Shown piece by piece: positions 2,786-62,888 of a stretch of DNA of 64,000 bases. The position numbers and the translations under genes were made by a program. Every line of letters begins with the position of its first letter. Within the stretch, counting starts at the first letter, position 1. The notes below the pieces were generated by a model. The model made no database searches. It worked only from the letters and a program-made list of their open reading frames with translations, and was not told the DNA's origin. The stretch is from Dehalococcoidia bacterium (GTDB taxonomy: Bacteria > Chloroflexota > Dehalococcoidia > Lucifugimonadales > JAGWBF01): NCBI GenBank assembly GCA_965248975.1, contig CBDFKU010000016.1, positions 64,764 through 128,763 on the forward strand, read 5' to 3'.

Positions 2786-4258
2786 TTATCTGTGGCTGAG
2801 CCCACCGTCGACCCACGCTCGCCCGTCCTGGGCCAGCAGGTTGTCGGCGGCACCTACATTCCTCGAGCCAGGCTCATAGACGTGCAGGGGAGCCGAGTCC
2901 ACTTCCTCCCAAGCTCGCAGCAACGGGTCCACGATGTTCCAGGACTCCTCGATCTGGTCGCTGCGAATGAACAGCCTGGCGTCTCCCTCCAACGCGTCCT
3001 GGAGCAGCCGCTCATAGGCCTCTGGGATGGCCCGGTCACCGAAGGCAGAGCGATAGTGGAACTCCATGTCCACCGACTGGAACTTCATCCCCTGGTCGGG
3101 TACCTTGGACTCTACGGTGAGATGCACTCCCTCGTCGGGCTGGAGGCGTAGCGCCAGGACGTTGGCGTTCAGGTTCTCCGAGGGTCCCATGTCGAACATC
3201 AGGTGCGGCGGCTGTTGAAACTGGATGACGATCTCCGACACCTTCTCCGCCAGGGCCTTGCCAGTACGCAGATAGAAGGGGACTCCCCGCCAGCGCCAGT
3301 TGTCTACATACAGCCGGAGGGCGGCGTACGTCGGGGTGAGGGAGTCGGCGGGCACCCCGTTCTCGTCCCGGTAGCCGCTGTATTGGGCCCGCACGGCGTG
3401 ACCGATCTCTTCCCCGGGCTCCCATCTGCGGATAGCCTTGAGCACCTCCACCTTCTTGTCCCGAAGGGCCTCAGAGTCCATGGAGCTGGGAGGTTCCATG
3501 GCCACCATCGTGAGTAGCTGGAACAGGTGGTTCTGCACCATGTCCCGCACCACCCCCGACTGGTCGTAGTAGCCGGCCCGGCTGCCCACCGGCACCTCTT
3601 CCGCCACGGTGATCTGCACGTTGTCCACGTAGTTGCGGTTCCAGAGGGGCTCGAAGATCGTGTTGGAGAATCGGAAGACCAGGAGGTTCTGAACCGTCTC
3701 CTTGCCCAGGTAGTGGTCGATCCGGAAGACCTGATTCTCGCCGAATACCCCGTGTATCGCCTTGTTCAGCTCCTGTGCCGACGACAGGTCCCTTCCGAAG
3801 GGCTTCTCTATGACCACCCTGGACCAGCCGCTGTCTTCCCTCGCCAGCCCCGAGGCGCCCAGGTTCTCGACGGCCCGCTCGTAAAGGTTGGGGGCGATGG
3901 AAAGGTAGAAGAGCCTGTTGGCCGGTCTCTCGTATCCATCCATCTCCTGGAGTCTGTGCGCCAGTGATACCAACTGGTCGACCGACCCCACGTCTCCTCG
4001 CACATAGAACATGCACCTGGCGAAGGCGTCCCACTCATCTCGCCGGGCGGCCAGCTCGCCGAACTCCTGTGCTCCCTGCCACATCAGCTCCCGGAAGCTG
4101 TCGTCGGAGTGATCGGAGCGCGAGAAACCGACGATCTTCAGCCTTGACGGAAGTCGGCCCTTGCAGCCAAGGTTGAACAGCGCCGGTACAAGCTTCCTCC
4201 GAGTGAGGTCCCCCGTGGCGCCGGCGATTACGATGGTCGTCGATCCTTCCGCCATCAT
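2786..4258 (-). CDS. zwf: glucose-6-phosphate dehydrogenase
   Basis: 490-aa ORF with the dinucleotide-binding motif 'IAGATGDLTRRKL' and the Zwf active-site motifs 'EKPFG' and 'RIDHYLGKE'. AGGAG lies upstream of the ATG. Confidence 0.93.
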   Translation of the reverse strand: MMAEGSTTIVIAGATGDLTRRKLVPALFNLGCKGRLPSRLKIVGFSRSDHSDDSFRELMWQGAQEFGELAARRDEWDAFARCMFYVRGDVGSVDQLVSLAHRLQEMDGYERPANRLFYLSIAPNLYERAVENLGASGLAREDSGWSRVVIEKPFGRDLSSAQELNKAIHGVFGENQVFRIDHYLGKETVQNLLVFRFSNTIFEPLWNRNYVDNVQITVAEEVPVGSRAGYYDQSGVVRDMVQNHLFQLLTMVAMEPPSSMDSEALRDKKVEVLKAIRRWEPGEEIGHAVRAQYSGYRDENGVPADSLTPTYAALRLYVDNWRWRGVPFYLRTGKALAEKVSEIVIQFQQPPHLMFDMGPSENLNANVLALRLQPDEGVHLTVESKVPDQGMKFQSVDMEFHYRSAFGDRAIPEAYERLLQDALEGDARLFIRSDQIEESWNIVDPLLRAWEEVDSAPLHVYEPGSRNVGAADNLLAQDGRAWVDGGLSHR

Positions 4259-4439
4259 CCGATCTCCTACGACGTCCGTATTCTATATACTCTATTTATG
4301 ATACATCACAATGGGAGAAAATGGGTCTCCTGGCAAGGGGCACCAAAGCATGAACCTCTTCCGACCGTCTGGACATCCAAGACGGCATGCCTCGACCGCG
4401 CGGATGGAAGCGGTCTGGTAAGATTGCCGAGAAAAGCCA

Positions 4440-5786
4440 ATGGCAAAGAGCAGAGTCCTCCTCATATCCGTTATCGCCATCGCTCTGGCCGTGGCCGGGA
4501 TCGTCGTAGGCCTGGGCTTGGCCGGGGCCATCGGCTCCGGAGACTCACCTTCGGAGGCCCGGACACCTCAGACAGCGACGCCCACCATAGCTGAGGTGGC
4601 GGTCCAGCCCGACCCTAACTATAGGGAAGAGCTGGCGAAAGGTATTTTCTCCCCCTCGGGATGGAAGACCGACTTCAGCCTTCACACCGTGCCTTACGAG
4701 AACATCGTACAGGCCGCCGCCGCTCGGGACGGAGGTATCCCGGCCATCGACAATCCGGTATTCATCAGCCGCCAAGAGGCCGACGGATGGCTCTTCGCCC
4801 TTGAGCCGGTGATCGCCTTCGAGAGCAACGGCGAGGCCAGGGCCTACCCGATCGAGATCCTGATATTCCACGAGATCGTCAACGACGTGGTGGGTGGCAC
4901 GCCCGTTGCGGTAACCTATTGCCCCCTCTGCAACTCCGCAATCACCTTCGACAGGCGAGTGGATGGTGCCACCTTCGACTTCGGCGTATCGGGCAACCTG
5001 CTGAACAGCGACCTGATAATGTACGACCGCCAGACCCACTCGTGGTGGCAACAGCTCACCGGCGAAGGCATCGTGGGAGAAAACGCCGGCAAGAGGTTGA
5101 CGATCCTGCCGTCGTTTGTAGTGTCCTGGAGGGATTTCAAGGCGGTGTTTCCCGATGGGGAGGTTCTTTCCCAGGATACCGGATTCGCCCGCGCCTACGG
5201 ATTCACTCCCTACGAAGGTTACGATGACTCTACCTACGACCCGTTCCTGTTCTACGGGGAGCTCGACCCGAGGCTCCCTTCCAAGGAGCGGGTGGCGGCG
5301 GTGAGCGTAGGCGACGTCGACATAGCCTTTCCCTTTTCGAAGCTGCGGAATCAGAAAGTCGTAAACCACTCCGTCAACGGACAGGACATTGTGGTTTTCT
5401 TCAAGCCGCAGACGGTCTCGCCGTTGAACAGGACCTCCATAATCGACTCCCTTCCCAGGGGCGCCGCCGCGGTCTTCGATCCCAACCTGGACGGCGAGCG
5501 GCTGACCTTCAGCGCCGACGGCGAGGACCTCGTCGACGATCAGACGGGTAGCGTGTGGAACATCTTGGGACGGGCTATCGAAGGTCCGCTGGAGGGTAGC
5601 CGGCTGCCGCCGGCTACCACATCACCGACCCCGATCTCAGGAGCTTCGTGTACCAGACTTATAACACGTGGGCGGCAGACTTCTCCAAGGCGAGCCCCGG
5701 CCGACTTGCTGCTCTGGCTTGTATCCCCAATACGGACCCACAGCTGGCCGCCTCGGAACTGCGGCGGACCGCCAAGCTGGGCCTGA
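4440..5786 (+). CDS. DUF3179 domain protein with aberrant (read-through) C-terminus
   Basis: N-terminal TM anchor 'VLLISVIAIALAVAGIVVGLGLAG'. The core 'GIPAIDNPVFIS...ARAYPIEILIFHEIVNDVVGGTPVAVTYCPLCNSAITFDR...MYDRQTHSWWQQ' is the DUF3179 signature. After 'LEGSRLPP' (~5610) the expected aromatic C-terminal segment is absent. The frame then continues as a Pro/Arg/Ser/Trp-rich tail across the next gene fragment to the stop at 5786. Confidence 0.6.
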   Translation: MAKSRVLLISVIAIALAVAGIVVGLGLAGAIGSGDSPSEARTPQTATPTIAEVAVQPDPNYREELAKGIFSPSGWKTDFSLHTVPYENIVQAAAARDGGIPAIDNPVFISRQEADGWLFALEPVIAFESNGEARAYPIEILIFHEIVNDVVGGTPVAVTYCPLCNSAITFDRRVDGATFDFGVSGNLLNSDLIMYDRQTHSWWQQLTGEGIVGENAGKRLTILPSFVVSWRDFKAVFPDGEVLSQDTGFARAYGFTPYEGYDDSTYDPFLFYGELDPRLPSKERVAAVSVGDVDIAFPFSKLRNQKVVNHSVNGQDIVVFFKPQTVSPLNRTSIIDSLPRGAAAVFDPNLDGERLTFSADGEDLVDDQTGSVWNILGRAIEGPLEGSRLPPATTSPTPISGASCTRLITRGRQTSPRRAPADLLLWLVSPIRTHSWPPRNCGGPPSWA

Positions 5787-52144: not shown

Positions 52145-53242
52145 TCAGGCTAGCTCTGCCAGCACGCCGCCCAACGCTTCTATCAGGGCGTCGGTCTCGT
52201 GAGGAAGCCCCACGCTGATCCGGAAGAAATCTCCCAGTCCGGAAAAGTACCTTACGAATATTCCTTCACGGCCCAGGCCTTCATAGACCTCTCTACCCTT
52301 GCCCTCAGGGAGCCCGCAGAAAATGAAGTTCGCCTCCGAGGGCCAGGGATAGATTCCCTCCAGGCTCCGCAGCATCAAGTACATGCGCTCCCGCTCAGAG
52401 ACGATAGCCTGGACCCGGGCGGTCAAGGCCTCCATGTCTGCCAGGGACGCCAGGAGAGCCACCTCTGCCGCCAGGTTCACGTTGTAGGGGGGTTTTACGG
52501 CCATCATCACCCCGGCCACCTCGGGTTGCATCACGCCCAGCCCTATGCGCAGACCCGCCAGGCCCGCCCACTTGCTGAAGGTGCGCAGCACGATGAGGTT
52601 CGGGTACTCCTGCACCAGGGGAAGGACGGTACGGCCGCAGAACTCGTAGTAGGTCTCGTCCACAACCACCAGCCTCCCCGTGTCCAGGAGGCGGCGTACC
52701 TGTCCCTCGGAGGCGATGTTCCCCGTCGGGTTGTTGGGAGAGGCGAAGAGGATAGCCTTGGTCCCGGAGTCCACGGCCCGTATCGTAGCCTCCAGATCGA
52801 TCTCCCAACTCTCGTCCCGCGGGACCGACACGACCTCGCCACCGCAGATGCGGGCGCAGACGGCGTACATGGCGAAGGTGGGCGCCGGGTCGATGATCCT
52901 CTCTCCGGGCGCCAGGAACATCCGCAGGATCAGGTCGATGATCTCGTCGCTGCCGTTGCCGGCGACGATGGATTCGGCCCCCACGCCCAGATACCCGGAC
53001 AGCGCCTCACGCAGCCGCCTCTGCTCGGGGTCGGGGTACAGATTATACTGTTTGTAGCCGCCCAGAGCCTCCGCCACCTTCCGCGACGGGCCGTAGGGAT
53101 TTTCGTTGCCGTTGAGCTTTATTATCCTGTCGGCCGGTATCCCCGCCCGCTGGGCCAGCACCTCGGGCGGGTCCACGCCCTGGTAAGCATCCAGACGGCG
53201 GATGTGGGGCTGCATCAGGTCAGTTGCCGAAACCGCGGTCAC
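52145..53242 (-). CDS. hisC: histidinol-phosphate aminotransferase
   Basis: 'KLNGNENPYGPS' and PLP-lysine context 'RTFSKWAGLAGLRIG'. Confidence 0.9.
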   Translation of the reverse strand: MTAVSATDLMQPHIRRLDAYQGVDPPEVLAQRAGIPADRIIKLNGNENPYGPSRKVAEALGGYKQYNLYPDPEQRRLREALSGYLGVGAESIVAGNGSDEIIDLILRMFLAPGERIIDPAPTFAMYAVCARICGGEVVSVPRDESWEIDLEATIRAVDSGTKAILFASPNNPTGNIASEGQVRRLLDTGRLVVVDETYYEFCGRTVLPLVQEYPNLIVLRTFSKWAGLAGLRIGLGVMQPEVAGVMMAVKPPYNVNLAAEVALLASLADMEALTARVQAIVSERERMYLMLRSLEGIYPWPSEANFIFCGLPEGKGREVYEGLGREGIFVRYFSGLGDFFRISVGLPHETDALIEALGGVLAELA

Positions 53243-54603
53243 GAAGCGCCGCCTTTCGAGACGCCCTCTCTCAGACCGTCAAGGCGGACTTCCACCGCCC
53301 TGGCGTGGCCGGTAAGGCCCTCGGCCCGGGCGATTACCGCCGCCGCTTCGGCCAGTCGTGGATACTCGGCAGGCTTCAGGCCCACCACCGGCATGGTCCT
53401 GAGGAAGTGGTGCACGCTCAGCGCCGAGCTGAAACGAGCCGTGCCCCCGGTGGGCATCACGTGGCTGGGTCCGGCCACGTAGTCCCCCATAACCTCCGGG
53501 GAGAAAGGCCCCAGGAACACTCCTCCGGCGTGCTTCACGCGGCCAGCCCATGCCCACGGGTCCCTGACCATCATGCACAGGTGCTCCGGCGCGATCTCGT
53601 TGGCCAGGTCGATGGCCTCATACAGGCTGTCTACCAGCACTACCTTGCCCCGACCCTCCATAGAGAGTCCGGCCAGCTCCCCCCGGTCCATGGTAGCGAG
53701 CTGACGGTCCAGCTCTCCTTCCAGCTCTCCTATGAGAGCCAGGGAAGTGGTCACAAGGATCGGGGAAGCCAGGGGGTCGTGCTCGGCCTGGGCCAGAAGG
53801 TCCGCCGCGCAGTAAGAGGGGTTAGCGGTCTCGTCAGCCACGACCACGGTCTCGGTGGGGCCATAGAGGCCGTCGATGTCCACCTGTCCATAGACCAGCT
53901 TCTTGGCCAGGGTAACGAAGACGTTGCCCGGCCCGCAGATCTTGTCCACCTTTGGCACCGTGTCTGTCCCATAGGCCAGCGCCCCGATGGCCTGGACACC
54001 GCCGATGCGGAAGACCCGGTCCACTCCCGCCAGCCTGGCTGCGGCGAGGACCGAAGGGGCTGGGAGGCGCTCGTCCGCCGCCGGTGTGGCCAGCAACACT
54101 TCCTTCACGCCGGCTACCCTGGCCGGGATCGCCGTCATGAGCACCGTCGAGGGATATGACGCGGTCCCACCGGGCGCGTAGATGCCCACCCTCTCGATGG
54201 GGGTCACCAGCTCTCCCAGGCCCGACTCCAGGTCGATCCAGCTCTTGCGCATCGTAGCCCGGTGGTACTCTTCCACCCGTTGGGCGGCCGTCTCCAGGGC
54301 CTCGACCAGCTTCGCTGGGACTCCGTCGACGGCCCGGGTCCACTCGGCGTCTCCCACCTCTAGCTCATCCATGTCCGGAGGGAACCCGTCCAGCTTGCGG
54401 GCGTAACGGCGCACGGCGTCGTCACCTTCGGTTCGCACCTCCCGGAGGATGCGCTGCACCGACTCCAGTGGCGTGAGGCGTTCCCCGAAGACCTCCGCGG
54501 ACCTGTCGGCGACCTCGGGAGGCAAGGAGTCGGCCTCCAGGGGGTCCGGCCTGAAGCTTTCCTTCCTGGCCTGCTCCAGACCTTTGATTACTTTAAGGTT
54601 CAC
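53239..54603 (-). CDS. hisD: histidinol dehydrogenase
   Basis: 'VGIYAPGGTASYPSTVLM', 'ICGPGNVFV', 'LAQAEHDP' and 'APEHL'. Its stop overlaps the hisC start by 4 nt. Confidence 0.94.
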   Translation of the reverse strand: MNLKVIKGLEQARKESFRPDPLEADSLPPEVADRSAEVFGERLTPLESVQRILREVRTEGDDAVRRYARKLDGFPPDMDELEVGDAEWTRAVDGVPAKLVEALETAAQRVEEYHRATMRKSWIDLESGLGELVTPIERVGIYAPGGTASYPSTVLMTAIPARVAGVKEVLLATPAADERLPAPSVLAAARLAGVDRVFRIGGVQAIGALAYGTDTVPKVDKICGPGNVFVTLAKKLVYGQVDIDGLYGPTETVVVADETANPSYCAADLLAQAEHDPLASPILVTTSLALIGELEGELDRQLATMDRGELAGLSMEGRGKVVLVDSLYEAIDLANEIAPEHLCMMVRDPWAWAGRVKHAGGVFLGPFSPEVMGDYVAGPSHVMPTGGTARFSSALSVHHFLRTMPVVGLKPAEYPRLAEAAAVIARAEGLTGHARAVEVRLDGLREGVSKGGAS

Positions 54604-55348
54604 CCAGATACTCCTTTACCACTCTGACCGACTCCCGAACGACACTATCCCGGTAGGACGCCAGCGTCTCACCGGGTATCTTACCATACACCTCTTCCAG
54701 GCTGCCCGGCATGCGCTCAAGGAAGTCTTCAGCCATCTCCATAGCATCAGCGTCGTCCCGGTACATCCTGCGGGTGGCGAACCTCAGACGGTCCCAGGTG
54801 AACCCCCAACCGACGAACTCGGTCACCCACTCCCTCCAGCTGGACAACGTCTCCGCGTCGATGAACCTTACGTCGATGCCGGACTCCGAGCCTGCCAGCA
54901 CCTCCCGGACTCGCTCGACGCCCCCGAATCCATCCCAGGCCGTCCTGTCCATGTCTAGCTGAACGGCCCGGTCCCACAGGTTACCTTGAACCTGGCTTGC
55001 CTCGCCGTCCTGGCCGTCGAAGTAGGACCGGTATATGTTCACGATCCAGGTCTCGTCGGACACCAGGTGAGTAAAGTAGCCCGACAGGAAGGCTCTGGTC
55101 TCGTTGCCCAGCCGGGCGGCGTCGGCCAGCTCGGGATGGGCCTCCCACAGGCCCCTGATGCCGGCCCCGACGCTGTCCACGCTCAGAGGAGCGAAATGGG
55201 TCCGGTCTCGCTTCCACTTGGTCATGATGCGGATGTCGGGGCTGGTGGAACCCAGCAGGAAGCCGCCCAGGTGCCTTTCGAGGACGGGGTGGTCGATTCT
55301 GGAGGCTACTTCGTAGGCTAGGCTCAGGTGCGTAGGTAGGTTCGGCAC
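54593..55348 (-). CDS. uncharacterised His/Asp-rich protein, zinc-dependent phospholipase C-like (metallo-phosphoesterase-like), in the his operon
   Basis: 251-aa ORF reading 'MPNLPTHLSLAYEV...LGSTSPDIR...DRTHF...GYFTHLVSDETW'. The N-terminal His and the spaced H/D residues recall the Zn-dependent PLC family (memory only). It overlaps the hisD start by 11 nt and starts 1 nt after the hisG stop. Confidence 0.45.
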   Translation of the reverse strand: MPNLPTHLSLAYEVASRIDHPVLERHLGGFLLGSTSPDIRIMTKWKRDRTHFAPLSVDSVGAGIRGLWEAHPELADAARLGNETRAFLSGYFTHLVSDETWIVNIYRSYFDGQDGEASQVQGNLWDRAVQLDMDRTAWDGFGGVERVREVLAGSESGIDVRFIDAETLSSWREWVTEFVGWGFTWDRLRFATRRMYRDDADAMEMAEDFLERMPGSLEEVYGKIPGETLASYRDSVVRESVRVVKEYLGEP

Positions 55349-55349
55349 G

Positions 55350-56426
55350 TCAGGCCTCTCCCAGCGATTCCAACAGCCCGGCGTAGGCGTGGCACCGGTC
55401 CTTGAACAGGTAGCTGATCTGGGAGGCCGATATGTCCAGCCCTCCCGAGTCGCGAAGGTGGTCCACCGCTTCCAGTAGCTTTTCCCTGGGGACCACCAGG
55501 CTCACGGCGTACCAATCCTCTTCGTCCACGTTGGAGACCCGGGACACCGTAGGCCCCTGTAGTCCGGCCAGGTCCGGCCGGATCAGGATGGTGGCGCCCA
55601 CCGCCTCGGCGGAAGGTCCCCGCACGTTGGCCGTCAGTCGAAAGAAGGAGCCGGCTCTCAGGTGCCCCTCCATTATCTCCAGGATCGAGCGCGCCAACTC
55701 AAGGCTGGTGTGAGCTGCTTTCAGCAGGTCCCGGTTGCCGATCAGACAGGCCTGGGATGCCAGGATGGTGCCGTCGGCGATCGTCTTCAGCCGATTCTCC
55801 CGCAATGTTGTGCCGCTGGCGGTGAGGTCGGCGATCACATCGGCATAGCCGGCCGAGGGCGCCGCCTCGAGGGTGCCGCTAGCCTGCACCATCGAGAAGT
55901 AGTTGATTCCATTGCTATACAGGAACCTCTCCAGCAGTCGTGGGTACTTGGTGGCGACCCGCAGGTCCCGCCCCTTCTGGCGGAACTCCAGGGCCAGGTC
56001 GGCCAGATCGTCCACTGATACCACGTCCAGCCACGAATCCGGCACCGCCATGACCAGGTCGCAGTGGCCGTAGCCCAGATCCTCGATAATGGGGATGACC
56101 GGGCTTCCTTCCCGCCGGAACTCCAGGAAGCGGTCGAGGCCGGTGATTCCCAGCTCCGCGCTGCCCTCCTCCACCTTGTGGGTGATATCCGCCGTGCGCT
56201 GAAACAGCACGGCGGCGCCGGGAAGGGCCGGTATGCGGGCCGTGTAGCGTCGAGCGCTTGGCCGGTCGACGGGGATCCCGCTCCGGCTCAGGAAGGACAG
56301 GGACGGCTCGTACAGGTCTCCGTCGCTCGGAAGTGCCAACCTCAGCCCATCCTGGACGTCCCTGGGAAGGGTTTCGATATCGGCCCCATTTGCCTTGGAA
56401 GAGACGTTGTCCGAGGTACGTTTCAT
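55350..56426 (-). CDS. hisG: ATP phosphoribosyltransferase, long form with C-terminal regulatory domain
   Basis: 'LRLALPSDGDLYEPSLSFL', 'ELGITGLD', 'VATKYPRL' and C-terminal HisG_C-like 'GLQGPTVSRVSNVDEEDWYAVSLVV'. The ORF opens at 56453. ATG 56426 starts 1 nt after the upstream stop. Confidence 0.88.
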   Translation of the reverse strand: MKRTSDNVSSKANGADIETLPRDVQDGLRLALPSDGDLYEPSLSFLSRSGIPVDRPSARRYTARIPALPGAAVLFQRTADITHKVEEGSAELGITGLDRFLEFRREGSPVIPIIEDLGYGHCDLVMAVPDSWLDVVSVDDLADLALEFRQKGRDLRVATKYPRLLERFLYSNGINYFSMVQASGTLEAAPSAGYADVIADLTASGTTLRENRLKTIADGTILASQACLIGNRDLLKAAHTSLELARSILEIMEGHLRAGSFFRLTANVRGPSAEAVGATILIRPDLAGLQGPTVSRVSNVDEEDWYAVSLVVPREKLLEAVDHLRDSGGLDISASQISYLFKDRCHAYAGLLESLGEA

Positions 56427-56427
56427 T

Positions 56428-57870
56428 TTAGCGGAGTTCCTTGGCCGAGGCACGGTGGCTGGTGCGTTTTCCGCCCTTCTCTACAACGACGACCTCGGCG
56501 ATGCCGGCAGCTCTGGCGTATTCCAGGGCTTCTTCCAGGCTCATCGCGCACACGTCGGTCTCCGCGGGGACCCCCTGACAGCGTAGCTCTCCGGCCACGC
56601 GAAGCGCCTCCATGTGCACATCTCTGCCGGCGGCCATCACCAACACCCGCGAGGGCCGTTCTTTCGCGCTGTCGGTTTTGCCGTGTCCTTCCAGGACCTT
56701 CAGCAGGAGCTCCAGGGAGTAGGCGAATCCCAGGGCGGGAACGGCATCGGGGCTCCCCAGGGCCACAGCCAGGCCGTCGTATCTGCCACCCCCACCCAGC
56801 GAGGCGTCGTGGGATGGGTGCACTATCTCGAATACGATGCCGGTATAGTAGGCGAGGCCCCTGGCGAGCCCGAAGTCCAGCACTATCTCAGCACTGTCGA
56901 GGCCCTCTCCATCCAACAGGTCCATTACCCGGCGCAGCCTGTCCAGCACCCTGCGGGCCAGCCTTTCAGACTCGATCAATGCGTCCGCCTCGTTAAGGGA
57001 GGCTCCTGGCTCACCTTTGATCTGCGCGAGGCTCAGGGCCAGGTCCAGCCCCCGTTGCAGCTTCTCCGGATCATCCGTCCCCTTGAACTTGCGCAGCAGC
57101 CTCTCCACCACATCGGAGGGTTGCCGCTGGCCCAGGGACCCTGCTCCGGCCCACTTGAGCAGCCCGTGAAGGAGCTCACGGGCCTCGGCTTCCTCCATGC
57201 CCGCTATGACCGCCGCCAGGTCCGGCTGCCCGGGATCGGAGCCCAGCAGCCGAAGCTGTCTCGCCCTTTCGTGGATCCGGGCCACCCCATCCTCTCCCGA
57301 TTTCAGCTCGGTCAGGCTACCTAGAATGAACACGATGGCCCGCTCGGACAGCCCCAGGGACTCCAGCAGCCCACGTAGCACCCCCAGGTCCCCAATCTCC
57401 AGACGGTATCCGGACAGCCCCAGGTTGGAGAGTGCTGCACAACTCAGGGACAGGATCTCGGCGTCGGCAGTGGCGTCTGAGGACCCCAGCAGCTCCGCGC
57501 CCACCTGTATGAACTGGCGCTGGGTGCTGCCATCCCCCTCGTAGCGAAAGACCGGGCCGGCATACTGAATGCGGGCGGGAAAACGCTGCGCCGCGCCCGC
57601 CTCGATGACGTGCCTTACGATGGAGGACGTGTACTCCGGGCGCAGGCTCACCAGGTTAGCTCCAGGATCGGTGAAGGTGTACATGCGAGCGGCCAACTCC
57701 CCTCCGGACTTCCGCAGGAAGAGCTCGGTGGGCTCGAGGAGGGGAGGTTCGAGGACTCGGTAACCGTACAGGGAGAAGAACTCCCTCAAACGATCCTGGG
57801 CCGCCCTGAGGGGCCTCCAGGAGTCCTGGGGGAGGTCACGCATTCCCTGGAGGTGCTTGAAATTTTCCAT
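56428..57870 (-). CDS. histidyl-tRNA synthetase-like protein (HisS or HisZ-type paralogue)
   Basis: Class II HisRS layout with 'LQGMRDL', 'LRPEYTSSIVR', 'GPVFRYE', 'RGLAYYTGIVFE', 'LGGGGRYDGL' and an anticodon-binding-like C-terminus. The motif 2 loop reads 'YEGDGSTQRQF' rather than the R-P-Q-x-G-R-x-R-Q-F I expect for HisRS. Confidence 0.75.
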   Translation of the reverse strand: MENFKHLQGMRDLPQDSWRPLRAAQDRLREFFSLYGYRVLEPPLLEPTELFLRKSGGELAARMYTFTDPGANLVSLRPEYTSSIVRHVIEAGAAQRFPARIQYAGPVFRYEGDGSTQRQFIQVGAELLGSSDATADAEILSLSCAALSNLGLSGYRLEIGDLGVLRGLLESLGLSERAIVFILGSLTELKSGEDGVARIHERARQLRLLGSDPGQPDLAAVIAGMEEAEARELLHGLLKWAGAGSLGQRQPSDVVERLLRKFKGTDDPEKLQRGLDLALSLAQIKGEPGASLNEADALIESERLARRVLDRLRRVMDLLDGEGLDSAEIVLDFGLARGLAYYTGIVFEIVHPSHDASLGGGGRYDGLAVALGSPDAVPALGFAYSLELLLKVLEGHGKTDSAKERPSRVLVMAAGRDVHMEALRVAGELRCQGVPAETDVCAMSLEEALEYARAAGIAEVVVVEKGGKRTSHRASAKELR

Positions 57871-57969
57871 CGGCTTGAACGTGGGTATTGTACACCAAAA
57901 TCCCGTTCACGGAAAAGGAAATGCAATGCGGCAAACGAGGAGTCTAGCTTCGTAGGCGGGACTGGGCGC

Positions 57970-62237: not shown

Positions 62238-62888
62238 TCAATGGTCGTTCGTGTCATCCAGGCTGGCCGGCCGGAAGTTTCCCGAGCGCAGGGCCTCCAC
62301 CAGTTCCCTTTCGTCGCGGATGTGGGCGTCGAAGGAGGTGAGACAGGTTGCTATGGAGCTGGCCAGGTGGGCGTCGCTGCCTCCGATACCCCGGTAGCCA
62401 CGTTTTCCCGCCATATCCAGAGCCCTCTCGTTCTCGCCGCTGCGGCTGCCCCCGTTCAGGGTCTCCACGATTCCCAGGCCCGGGAACTCCACGCCGTTAC
62501 CCACGAACTCGCATAGCCCGATGCGTGGCCGCCCCGGGTGAGCCGGTATGGCCAGCGCCCCGTTGGCTTCGGCTTCGGCAATGAGCCGGACGGGGTCCAT
62601 GGTCACATCGGCGAAGTCCACCGCCTCCAGCAACCCGTCGGTCACTCCGTAGACCAGGAAATGGCCGTAGCGAGTATCGAGCTCCGAGCCTTTAAGCACC
62701 AGGACCCCGTACTCCCGGCCAAGGGACGAGTAGTCCGCGTCGCGGTCGAACTTGCGGTGCTCGGTGAGCACGATGCCGTCTATGGTGTAGCCCCGTTTCC
62801 TCAGCACATGGATCCACTTCAGATACTGCTCCACTGTCGCCCGGGAGTCGTCCGAGGAGACGGAGTGACTGTGCATGTCTATGAACAC
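62238..62888 (-). CDS. PHP domain metal-dependent phosphoesterase
   Basis: 'MFIDMHSHSVSSDDS', 'IPAHPGRP' and 'GGSDAH', the PHP-family His/Asp ligand pattern. Confidence 0.72.
   Translation of the reverse strand: MFIDMHSHSVSSDDSRATVEQYLKWIHVLRKRGYTIDGIVLTEHRKFDRDADYSSLGREYGVLVLKGSELDTRYGHFLVYGVTDGLLEAVDFADVTMDPVRLIAEAEANGALAIPAHPGRPRIGLCEFVGNGVEFPGLGIVETLNGGSRSGENERALDMAGKRGYRGIGGSDAHLASSIATCLTSFDAHIRDERELVEALRSGNFRPASLDDTNDH

Follow-up and report, generated by a model that had tools for sequence, protein, structure and literature searches.

The gene considered here is an uncharacterised open reading frame (ORF), designated X, on the minus strand of a 64-kb stretch of DNA from a Dehalococcoidia bacterium (assembly GCA_965248975.1, 20 contigs, 92% complete; contig CBDFKU010000016.1, positions 64,764 to 128,763). 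The stretch is referred to as the window, and all positions count from its start unless a contig is named. X lies within a histidine (his) operon (Table 1). The order hisS/Z-like, hisG, X, hisD, hisC, hisB that had been proposed in the initial annotation was confirmed from the ORFs and the profile matches. Every detail of the layout that was checked, that is, the length of 251 aa, the start 1 nt past the hisG stop and the 11-nt overlap with hisD, was correct. The description of the 199-aa hisB product as a dehydratase only was likewise accurate, the imidazoleglycerol-phosphate dehydratase (IGPD) domain being its sole match. The match of this protein to the bifunctional model NF003937 was confined to the C-terminal half of the model, and the HAD phosphatase domain is absent.

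Table 1. Features of the his operon around X and of the second his cluster.
Feature	Position	Strand	Evidence or remark
X, uncharacterised putative two-metal hydrolase resembling phospholipase C/P1 nuclease, 251 aa	54593..55348	-	ORF, PF00882 match, homologues, AF2 model
hisZ/hisS-like paralogue of histidyl-tRNA synthetase (HisRS), heading the operon	56428..57870	-	PF13393 194.8 bits; TIGR00442 and TIGR00443 below cut-off
hisG, ATP phosphoribosyltransferase, long form with HisG_C	55350..56453	-	PF01634 132 bits, PF08029 43.5, TIGR00070 171.6
hisD, histidinol dehydrogenase	53239..54603	-	TIGR00069 495.7 bits
hisC, histidinol-phosphate aminotransferase	52145..53242	-	ORF; PF00155 at the orthologous position in relatives
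hisB, monofunctional imidazoleglycerol-phosphate dehydratase, 199 aa	51514..52113	-	PF00475 (IGPD) 186 bits, residues 33-176
Codons for X residues 6-98, N-terminal half matching Zn_dep_PLPC, with candidate metal ligands	55055..55333	-	
Invariant N-terminus of X, M-P-N-L-P-T-H	55328..55348	-	Distance from start codon to His7 fixed
hisG stop, 1-nt spacer and GGAGAGG ribosome-binding-like run before the X start	55349..55362	-	Sequence reading
Last 11 nt of X, shared with the GTG start of hisD (translational coupling)	54593..54603	-	
HAD-superfamily hydrolase (HAD238), 238 aa, between hisF and hisIE	contig C18:253515-254231	-	Outside the window
Class I S-adenosylmethionine methyltransferase-like gene, 199 aa, between hisA and hisF	contig C18:255030-255629	-	Outside the window

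The start codon of X is GTG (55348-55346) and the hisG stop TGA occupies 55352-55350, leaving the single spacer base 55349. The GGAGAGG run 6 nt before the GTG resembles a Shine-Dalgarno sequence. X has a GC content of 0.63, like that of the neighbouring genes, and no terminator-like sites were found inside the operon on the minus strand. The tight packing is shared by relatives. In 48 of the 50 loci that could be resolved, hisG and X are spaced by -1 to 4 nt, and overlaps of 11, 14 and 20 nt between X and hisD are the commonest (50 of 80 loci).

The distribution of X was evaluated in a sample of 201 Dehalococcoidia species genomes, 190 of which carry hisD. X was found in 113 of the sampled species, nearly always as a single match. 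It is a small family, with 577 homologues in 90% clusters; at 50% identity they form 518 clusters (among 1.84 billion representatives), nearly all of about 250 aa and none with a fusion to HisD or HisG. A relative of X is encoded in 410 stretches of the GTDB species-genome collection, and the named carriers are all metagenome-assembled genomes of uncultured Dehalococcoidia, SAR202 or 'Chloroflexota'. X stands immediately upstream of hisD on the same strand in all 85 genomes for which both coordinates were listed, representing about 35 families, and the order hisZ-hisG-X-hisD-hisC-hisB was present in 80 of 80 fetched species-genome loci, which bears out the his linkage noted at the outset. This synteny is kept even in families where the identity of X drops to 28-43%. 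Other classes of Chloroflexota have more distant paralogues, which are not linked to his genes. Their neighbours (kinase-like, SLT, esterase, ABC and glyoxalase genes) were inspected for a hint of function and gave nothing informative. X is a real conserved family, and its tie to histidine synthesis is as close as gene order is able to demonstrate. Because all Dehalococcoidia genomes with X have it between hisG and hisD, X probably serves histidine synthesis.

Comparison with Pfam showed that residues 6-98 of X match positions 1-93 of the 167-position profile PF00882 (Zn_dep_PLPC) with 29.1 bits, the gathering cut-off being 26.8. The same match to the N-terminal half was seen in nine of nine diverse relatives of X (13.9-38.8 bits, three above the cut-off, E-values to 1e-9), and the homology of this half to PF00882 is credible because the half-match recurs in all of them. 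The resemblance to phospholipase C/P1-nuclease-type (PLC/P1) phosphoesterases, which had been pointed out in the initial annotation, is thus found just above threshold, in the N-terminal half only. No NCBIfam family matched X at E <= 0.1, including HisN (TIGR02067), HisJ (TIGR01856) and the HAD-type HisB-N (TIGR01656), and no match to PF01503 (HisE, PRA-PH) was present.

Eight residues, H7, D38, R47, T50, H51, F52, H94 and D98, are invariant among 28 orthologues and in a wider alignment of 17 sequences that extends down to 20% identity. The motifs that had first drawn attention to the protein, MPNLPTH, STSPDIR, DRTHF and FTHLVSDE, are real and conserved, and contain five of the invariant residues (H7, D38, H51, H94 and D98). 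Their spacing, H..D..H..H-x3-D, corresponds to the ligand order for two of the three zinc ions in phospholipase C and P1 nuclease. The start M-P-N-L-P-x-H is found at a valid start codon in 80 of 80 orthologous loci, no signal sequence is present, and a His at position 7 also occurs in the distant paralogues outside his operons. A D126-R127-x2-Q130-x3-D134 motif is limited to the his-linked subfamily and absent from those paralogues. The confident AlphaFold (AF2) model of X, with a predicted local distance difference test score (pLDDT) of 92.1 and a predicted template modelling score (pTM) of 0.91, is all-helical with 14 helices.

The closest known systems are the zinc-dependent phospholipase C family (PF00882), to which the phosphatidylcholine-preferring enzyme of Bacillus cereus belongs, and the related S1/P1 nucleases. 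X resembles them in its N-terminal ~95 residues and, as far as the model goes, in being all-helical. In P1 nuclease the terminal amine is a metal ligand (Trp1, His6). The fixed distance from the N-terminus of X to His7, which resembles this arrangement, is as expected if the terminal amine of X is also a metal ligand; removal of the initiator Met would presumably expose Pro2. X differs from these enzymes in several respects. The known enzymes are secreted and processed, with an N-terminal Trp, whereas X is cytoplasmic, has no signal peptide or propeptide and would present a Pro. The C-terminal half of X is unmatched and ligands of a third metal cannot be aligned. The genomic setting of X is amino-acid biosynthesis, that of the known enzymes secretion and the degradation of nucleic acids or lipids. 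The uncharacterised YdjM/DUF457-type putative metal hydrolases (PF04307, in the same clan as PF00882) are bacterial relatives with the phospholipase C scaffold, and matched two X orthologues with 12-13 bits, far below the cut-off; unlike X, they are membrane proteins without his linkage. X is read as a his-dedicated, probably catalytic two-metal hydrolase, for which metal binding, phosphoesterase chemistry and substrate are inferences.

A survey of the source genome indicated which reaction such an enzyme might catalyse. The bifunctional HisIE is intact (PRA-CH 105 bits, PRA-PH 77 bits) and is encoded in a second his cluster on contig C18, which contains hisH, hisA, a methyltransferase-like gene, hisF, a HAD hydrolase and hisIE. 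No above-cut-off match to HisJ (TIGR01856) was detected genome-wide, and none to HisB-N/HAD-IIIA (TIGR01656). Two inositol monophosphatase (IMPase) paralogues reached 156 and 119 bits against a HisN (TIGR02067) cut-off of 275, and both lack motif 5, which is diagnostic of HisN (PMC5516325). The suspicion that a canonical histidinol-phosphate phosphatase (HolPase) is missing was thus substantiated by empty searches for HisJ, HisB-N and motif-5 HisN alike. Because canonical HolPases are absent and HisIE is present, the HolPase step is the only one left unassigned in this genome. The PHP protein at 62238-62888 had been named as a possible canonical HolPase, a reading that was not supported: it has no match to TIGR01856 and its best match is a CehA/McbA domain below the cut-off; its gene is syntenic, about 4 kb upstream, in close relatives only. 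The HAD hydrolase of the second cluster, HAD238, has D-x-F/Y as motif I, and its best NCBIfam match is to haloacid dehalogenase type II, below the cut-off. HAD phosphatases have D-x-D at motif I. On both grounds HAD238 is also no obvious phosphatase.

HolPase is taken as the likeliest activity of X here because it is the sole pathway reaction without an assigned enzyme, and X is clustered with his genes in a genome where HisJ, HisB-N and motif-5 HisN were not found. The most likely specific role of X in the source genome is that of a histidinol-phosphate phosphatase, with a probability of roughly 0.3, and it is probably not the whole story. Summed, the alternatives outweigh this assignment; singly, none beats it, and part of the probability belongs to none of the roles considered.

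As a HolPase, X would be a cytoplasmic metal-dependent phosphohydrolase of the zinc phospholipase C/P1-nuclease superfamily, of whose scaffold only the portion for two of the three metals is left. Once the initiator Met is cleaved off, the free amine of Pro2 would join His7, Asp38, His51, His94 and Asp98 in coordinating two metal ions, Asp98 bridging both. A metal-bound water would then attack the phosphate ester, while the phosphate would be held by the invariant Arg47 and by Arg127, Arg187 and Arg194 of the his-linked subfamily. Translational coupling would supply X in fixed proportion with HisG and HisD, and the product, histidinol, would be handed to HisD.

Some of the evidence against this reading is structural. 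The PLC/P1 superfamily is defined by nine ligands for three zinc ions (the N-terminal residue, five His and two to three Asp/Glu). The full trizinc set was not found in X, the C-terminal half of which has no alignable His/His/Glu triad. A Foldseek search of the PDB with the X model gave a best E-value of 0.94 and no PLC/P1 chain in the top 50, all-helical folds being hard for Foldseek, and two sequence profiles run against the PDB found no solved relative. The structure search therefore gave no confirmation of the phosphoesterase fold that had been supposed for X.

The proposed phylogenetic profile did not support this reading either. X was not complementary to HisN, HisJ and HisB-N among the 190 hisD-bearing genomes, 113 with X and 77 without, in counts not corrected for phylogeny. 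At least one of the HisN-type, HisJ-like and HAD-IIIA proteins is present in 54/113 genomes with X and in 25/77 without it. Taken separately, a HisN-type match of at least 200 bits was found in 30/113 and 7/77, respectively, and a HisJ-like protein in 11/113 and 0/77. Only HAD-IIIA showed a negative association, a weak one (17/113 with X, 22/77 without). Nine genomes with X have both HisE and a canonical-type HolPase. Motif 5 is present in the HisN-like proteins of four families, f87, f13, f11 and f100. In family f100, the order hisZ-hisG-X-hisD-hisC-hisB is followed in the same operon by an IMPase with HisN motif 5 (RGFGDFWQH), and X of this family retains the invariant residues despite the in-operon HisN. 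Moreover, 52 of the 77 genomes lacking X are without any known HolPase, so that other unrecognised HolPases must exist in the class regardless of X. In relatives without X, hisG abuts hisD and the slot is empty; this applies to families within the order as well as to single members of families in which X is otherwise present. HAD238 keeps its position in members of the order with and without X and in family f5, not in other families, and it is the only in-operon candidate in several of the relatives that lack X. Since relatives carry X plus a standard phosphatase, X is no simple stand-in for HolPase. Of the original proposal that X is a new HolPase or has another his-linked activity, the metallo-phosphoesterase-like character and the his linkage stood, the HolPase profile did not, and the second half of the proposal may hold.

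The objection from the profile is softened by the other jobs that the co-occurring proteins could have. A HisN-like IMPase was identified as the phosphoserine phosphatase (SerB) in Rhodanobacter, where a HolPase is already present (GapMind 2026, PMC13759103). Canonical SerB (TIGR00338) was detected in 0 of the 201 class genomes at E <= 1e-15, which makes phosphoserine phosphatase a second class-wide gap. The HisN-like genes of families f13, f87 and f11 are not linked to his genes; one is beside inositol-1-phosphate synthase and none beside serine genes. The HAD-IIIA proteins may be GmhB-type enzymes. Only family f100 is in hard conflict. Relaxed selection on X in the presence of HisN was also looked for; the ratio of X to HisD divergence lay between 1.0 and 2.2 in the families compared and did not follow HisN consistently (f100 1.78, f13 1.56, f87 1.09; the HisN-less f5 2.24 and f112 1.84). 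The gene beside inositol-1-phosphate synthase is that of G385 (family f87; L169:2715-3995 and 4040-4840), where the above-cut-off, motif-5 'HisN' IMPase is head-to-head with myo-inositol-1-phosphate synthase, which hints at an inositol role for that protein.

The co-occurrence of X with complete pathways would be accommodated if X were an accessory phosphohydrolase, useful but dispensable, that acts around the HisG step or on by-products of the pathway. It might hydrolyse pyrophosphate, inhibitory nucleotides or breakdown products of phosphoribosyl pyrophosphate (a cyclic phosphodiester), or dephosphorylate surplus intermediates. In some genomes X is found together with every canonical his enzyme, the nine with HisE and a HolPase-type protein being an example, and it has been lost repeatedly in small genomes without the operon slot being refilled. 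The start of X a few nucleotides from the hisG stop, the phosphodiesterase activity of known PF00882 relatives and the restriction of the D126-D134 motif to the his-linked subfamily all agree with such a role. However, no result points to a specific substrate, housekeeping pyrophosphatases and nucleotidases usually meet such needs, and the strict adjacency to hisD, besides hisG, would be left without explanation. An accessory role is considered unlikely, but it is the likeliest of the rivals to HolPase. That adjacency, with overlap in 100% of cases, is what one would expect of a non-catalytic metal-binding partner of HisD, itself a zinc enzyme, or of HisG/HisZ, made in stoichiometric amounts through coupling and acting in metal delivery, assembly or regulation. 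The His and Asp residues could merely bind metal, no fold match to any hydrolase was obtained, and X is dispensable in many lineages. Yet the pattern of conserved residues fits the catalytic site of a known hydrolase superfamily, and the absence of HisD or HisG fusions among the 518 clusters is not what would be expected of a partner. Furthermore, the core is unchanged in the paralogues outside his operons, whose contexts are unrelated, as would suit an enzymatic scaffold of general use. A partner role is accordingly considered improbable.

The remaining explanations are weaker still. Operon inertia could have kept X as a passenger unrelated to histidine, with HAD238, a promiscuous IMPase or one of the five small PHP proteins as the HolPase. 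The source genome does offer these candidates (HAD238, two IMPases and PHP proteins), and ORFs of unknown function that are dispensable for histidine synthesis are reported from actinobacterial his operons. A passenger would hardly maintain overlapping-frame synteny in 85/85 and 80/80 genomes while diverging to 28% identity, nor is X ever found away from hisD, and motif I of HAD238 is not D-x-D; this account is very improbable. The location of X directly behind hisG also suggests the phosphoribosyl-ATP (PR-ATP) pyrophosphohydrolase, or HisE, step, which is the second commonest gap in prototrophs (PMC13759103). A strong PRA-PH match is missing from 66 of the 113 genomes with X, and in f100, where HisN takes care of the HolPase step, HisE was not detected. 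For the source genome, X as the missing HisE was ruled out by the intact bifunctional HisIE together with family f13, which has hisE-hisG-X-hisD in one operon. Strong HisE is present in 47/113 genomes with X and 22/77 without, i.e. the genomes lacking X are without strong HisE even oftener (55/77). MazG-type substitutes are known (PMC5764234), and MazG-like matches are common here. HisE activity is the least probable function of those considered.

Returning to X as a HolPase, the known enzymes of this step and of HisE provide a useful comparison. HisN (IMPase-type, TIGR02067; Cg0910 of C. glutamicum) is likewise a metal-dependent phosphomonoesterase in or near his operons with a monofunctional hisB. 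It has no relationship to X in sequence or fold, and is found with X in the 30 genomes mentioned above, in the same operon in f100. HisJ/HisK (PHP-type, TIGR01856) is a trinuclear-metal phosphoesterase that was also at first an unknown ORF of a his operon and is a precedent for non-orthologous replacement; its TIM-barrel-like PHP fold is unlike that of X, and in the hisD-bearing genomes HisJ-like proteins occur only together with X. The HisE/MazG-type PR-ATP pyrophosphohydrolases are, like the model of X, all-helical; they are metal-dependent, act right after HisG and are a frequent gap, and have no homology to X. A broader proposal, which is more doubtful than the assignment of X in the source genome, is that X is a fourth, structurally unrelated HolPase family, in which a binuclear PLC/P1 scaffold with an N-terminal Pro ligand was recruited to cytosolic biosynthesis. 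Much of the Dehalococcoidia, marine SAR202 among them, might then rely on X as their main HolPase, and the co-occurring HisN-like IMPases would act on other steps (phosphoserine, inositol phosphate). A literature search found no paper that connects histidine synthesis with PF00882-like proteins, and neither it nor the homology searches yielded a characterised homologue of X.

Among the unexplained gaps in amino-acid biosynthesis, HolPase is the commonest: 42 of 208 prototrophs lack a recognised one (GapMind 2026, PMC13759103). Through such gaps uncultured microbes are wrongly called auxotrophs. X is compact and easily expressed, and its carriers comprise more than 400 species-level genomes of abundant uncultured Dehalococcoidia/SAR202. 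Establishing its activity would yield either a new enzyme family for the HolPase step or an unrecognised accessory reaction tied to histidine synthesis; both would assign a function, for the first time, to a cytoplasmic branch of the phospholipase C/P1-nuclease superfamily. The case also carries a caution, in that an assignment needs more than a missing step and an operon gene to match; the phyletic test fails here.

Several minor observations were made on the surroundings of these genes. The his transcription unit may have its 5' limit at a terminator-like hairpin (57901-57914, minus strand) that separates hisZ from an SDR gene upstream. The HisRS-like gene at 56428-57870 retains an anticodon-binding-like end and is partnered by a long-form hisG, and a second HisRS-like gene is present on contig C12. 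Long-form hisG normally works without HisZ. In many Dehalococcoidia, with or without X, hisG encodes about 470-540 aa and appears to be duplicated in tandem, as it matches HisG (PF01634) in two stretches (e.g. L041:8485-9900, L038:6628-8037 and L054:4218-5849). In G318 (family f89), which lacks X, the slot between hisG and hisD holds a HEPN-domain gene and a small unknown ORF (L054:6408-7195). In G333 (family f104), also without X, a 253-aa HAD hydrolase begins 2 nt after the hisB stop (L055:10377-11138) and is a candidate for a lineage-specific phosphatase. The methyltransferase-like gene between hisA and hisF was seen in one relative as well (G466). Finally, the source genome encodes five small PHP proteins and one of PolX type, and on contig C15 an IMPase-family gene (182463-183299) has a small PHP phosphoesterase gene (184514-185215) less than 1.3 kb away on the other strand.

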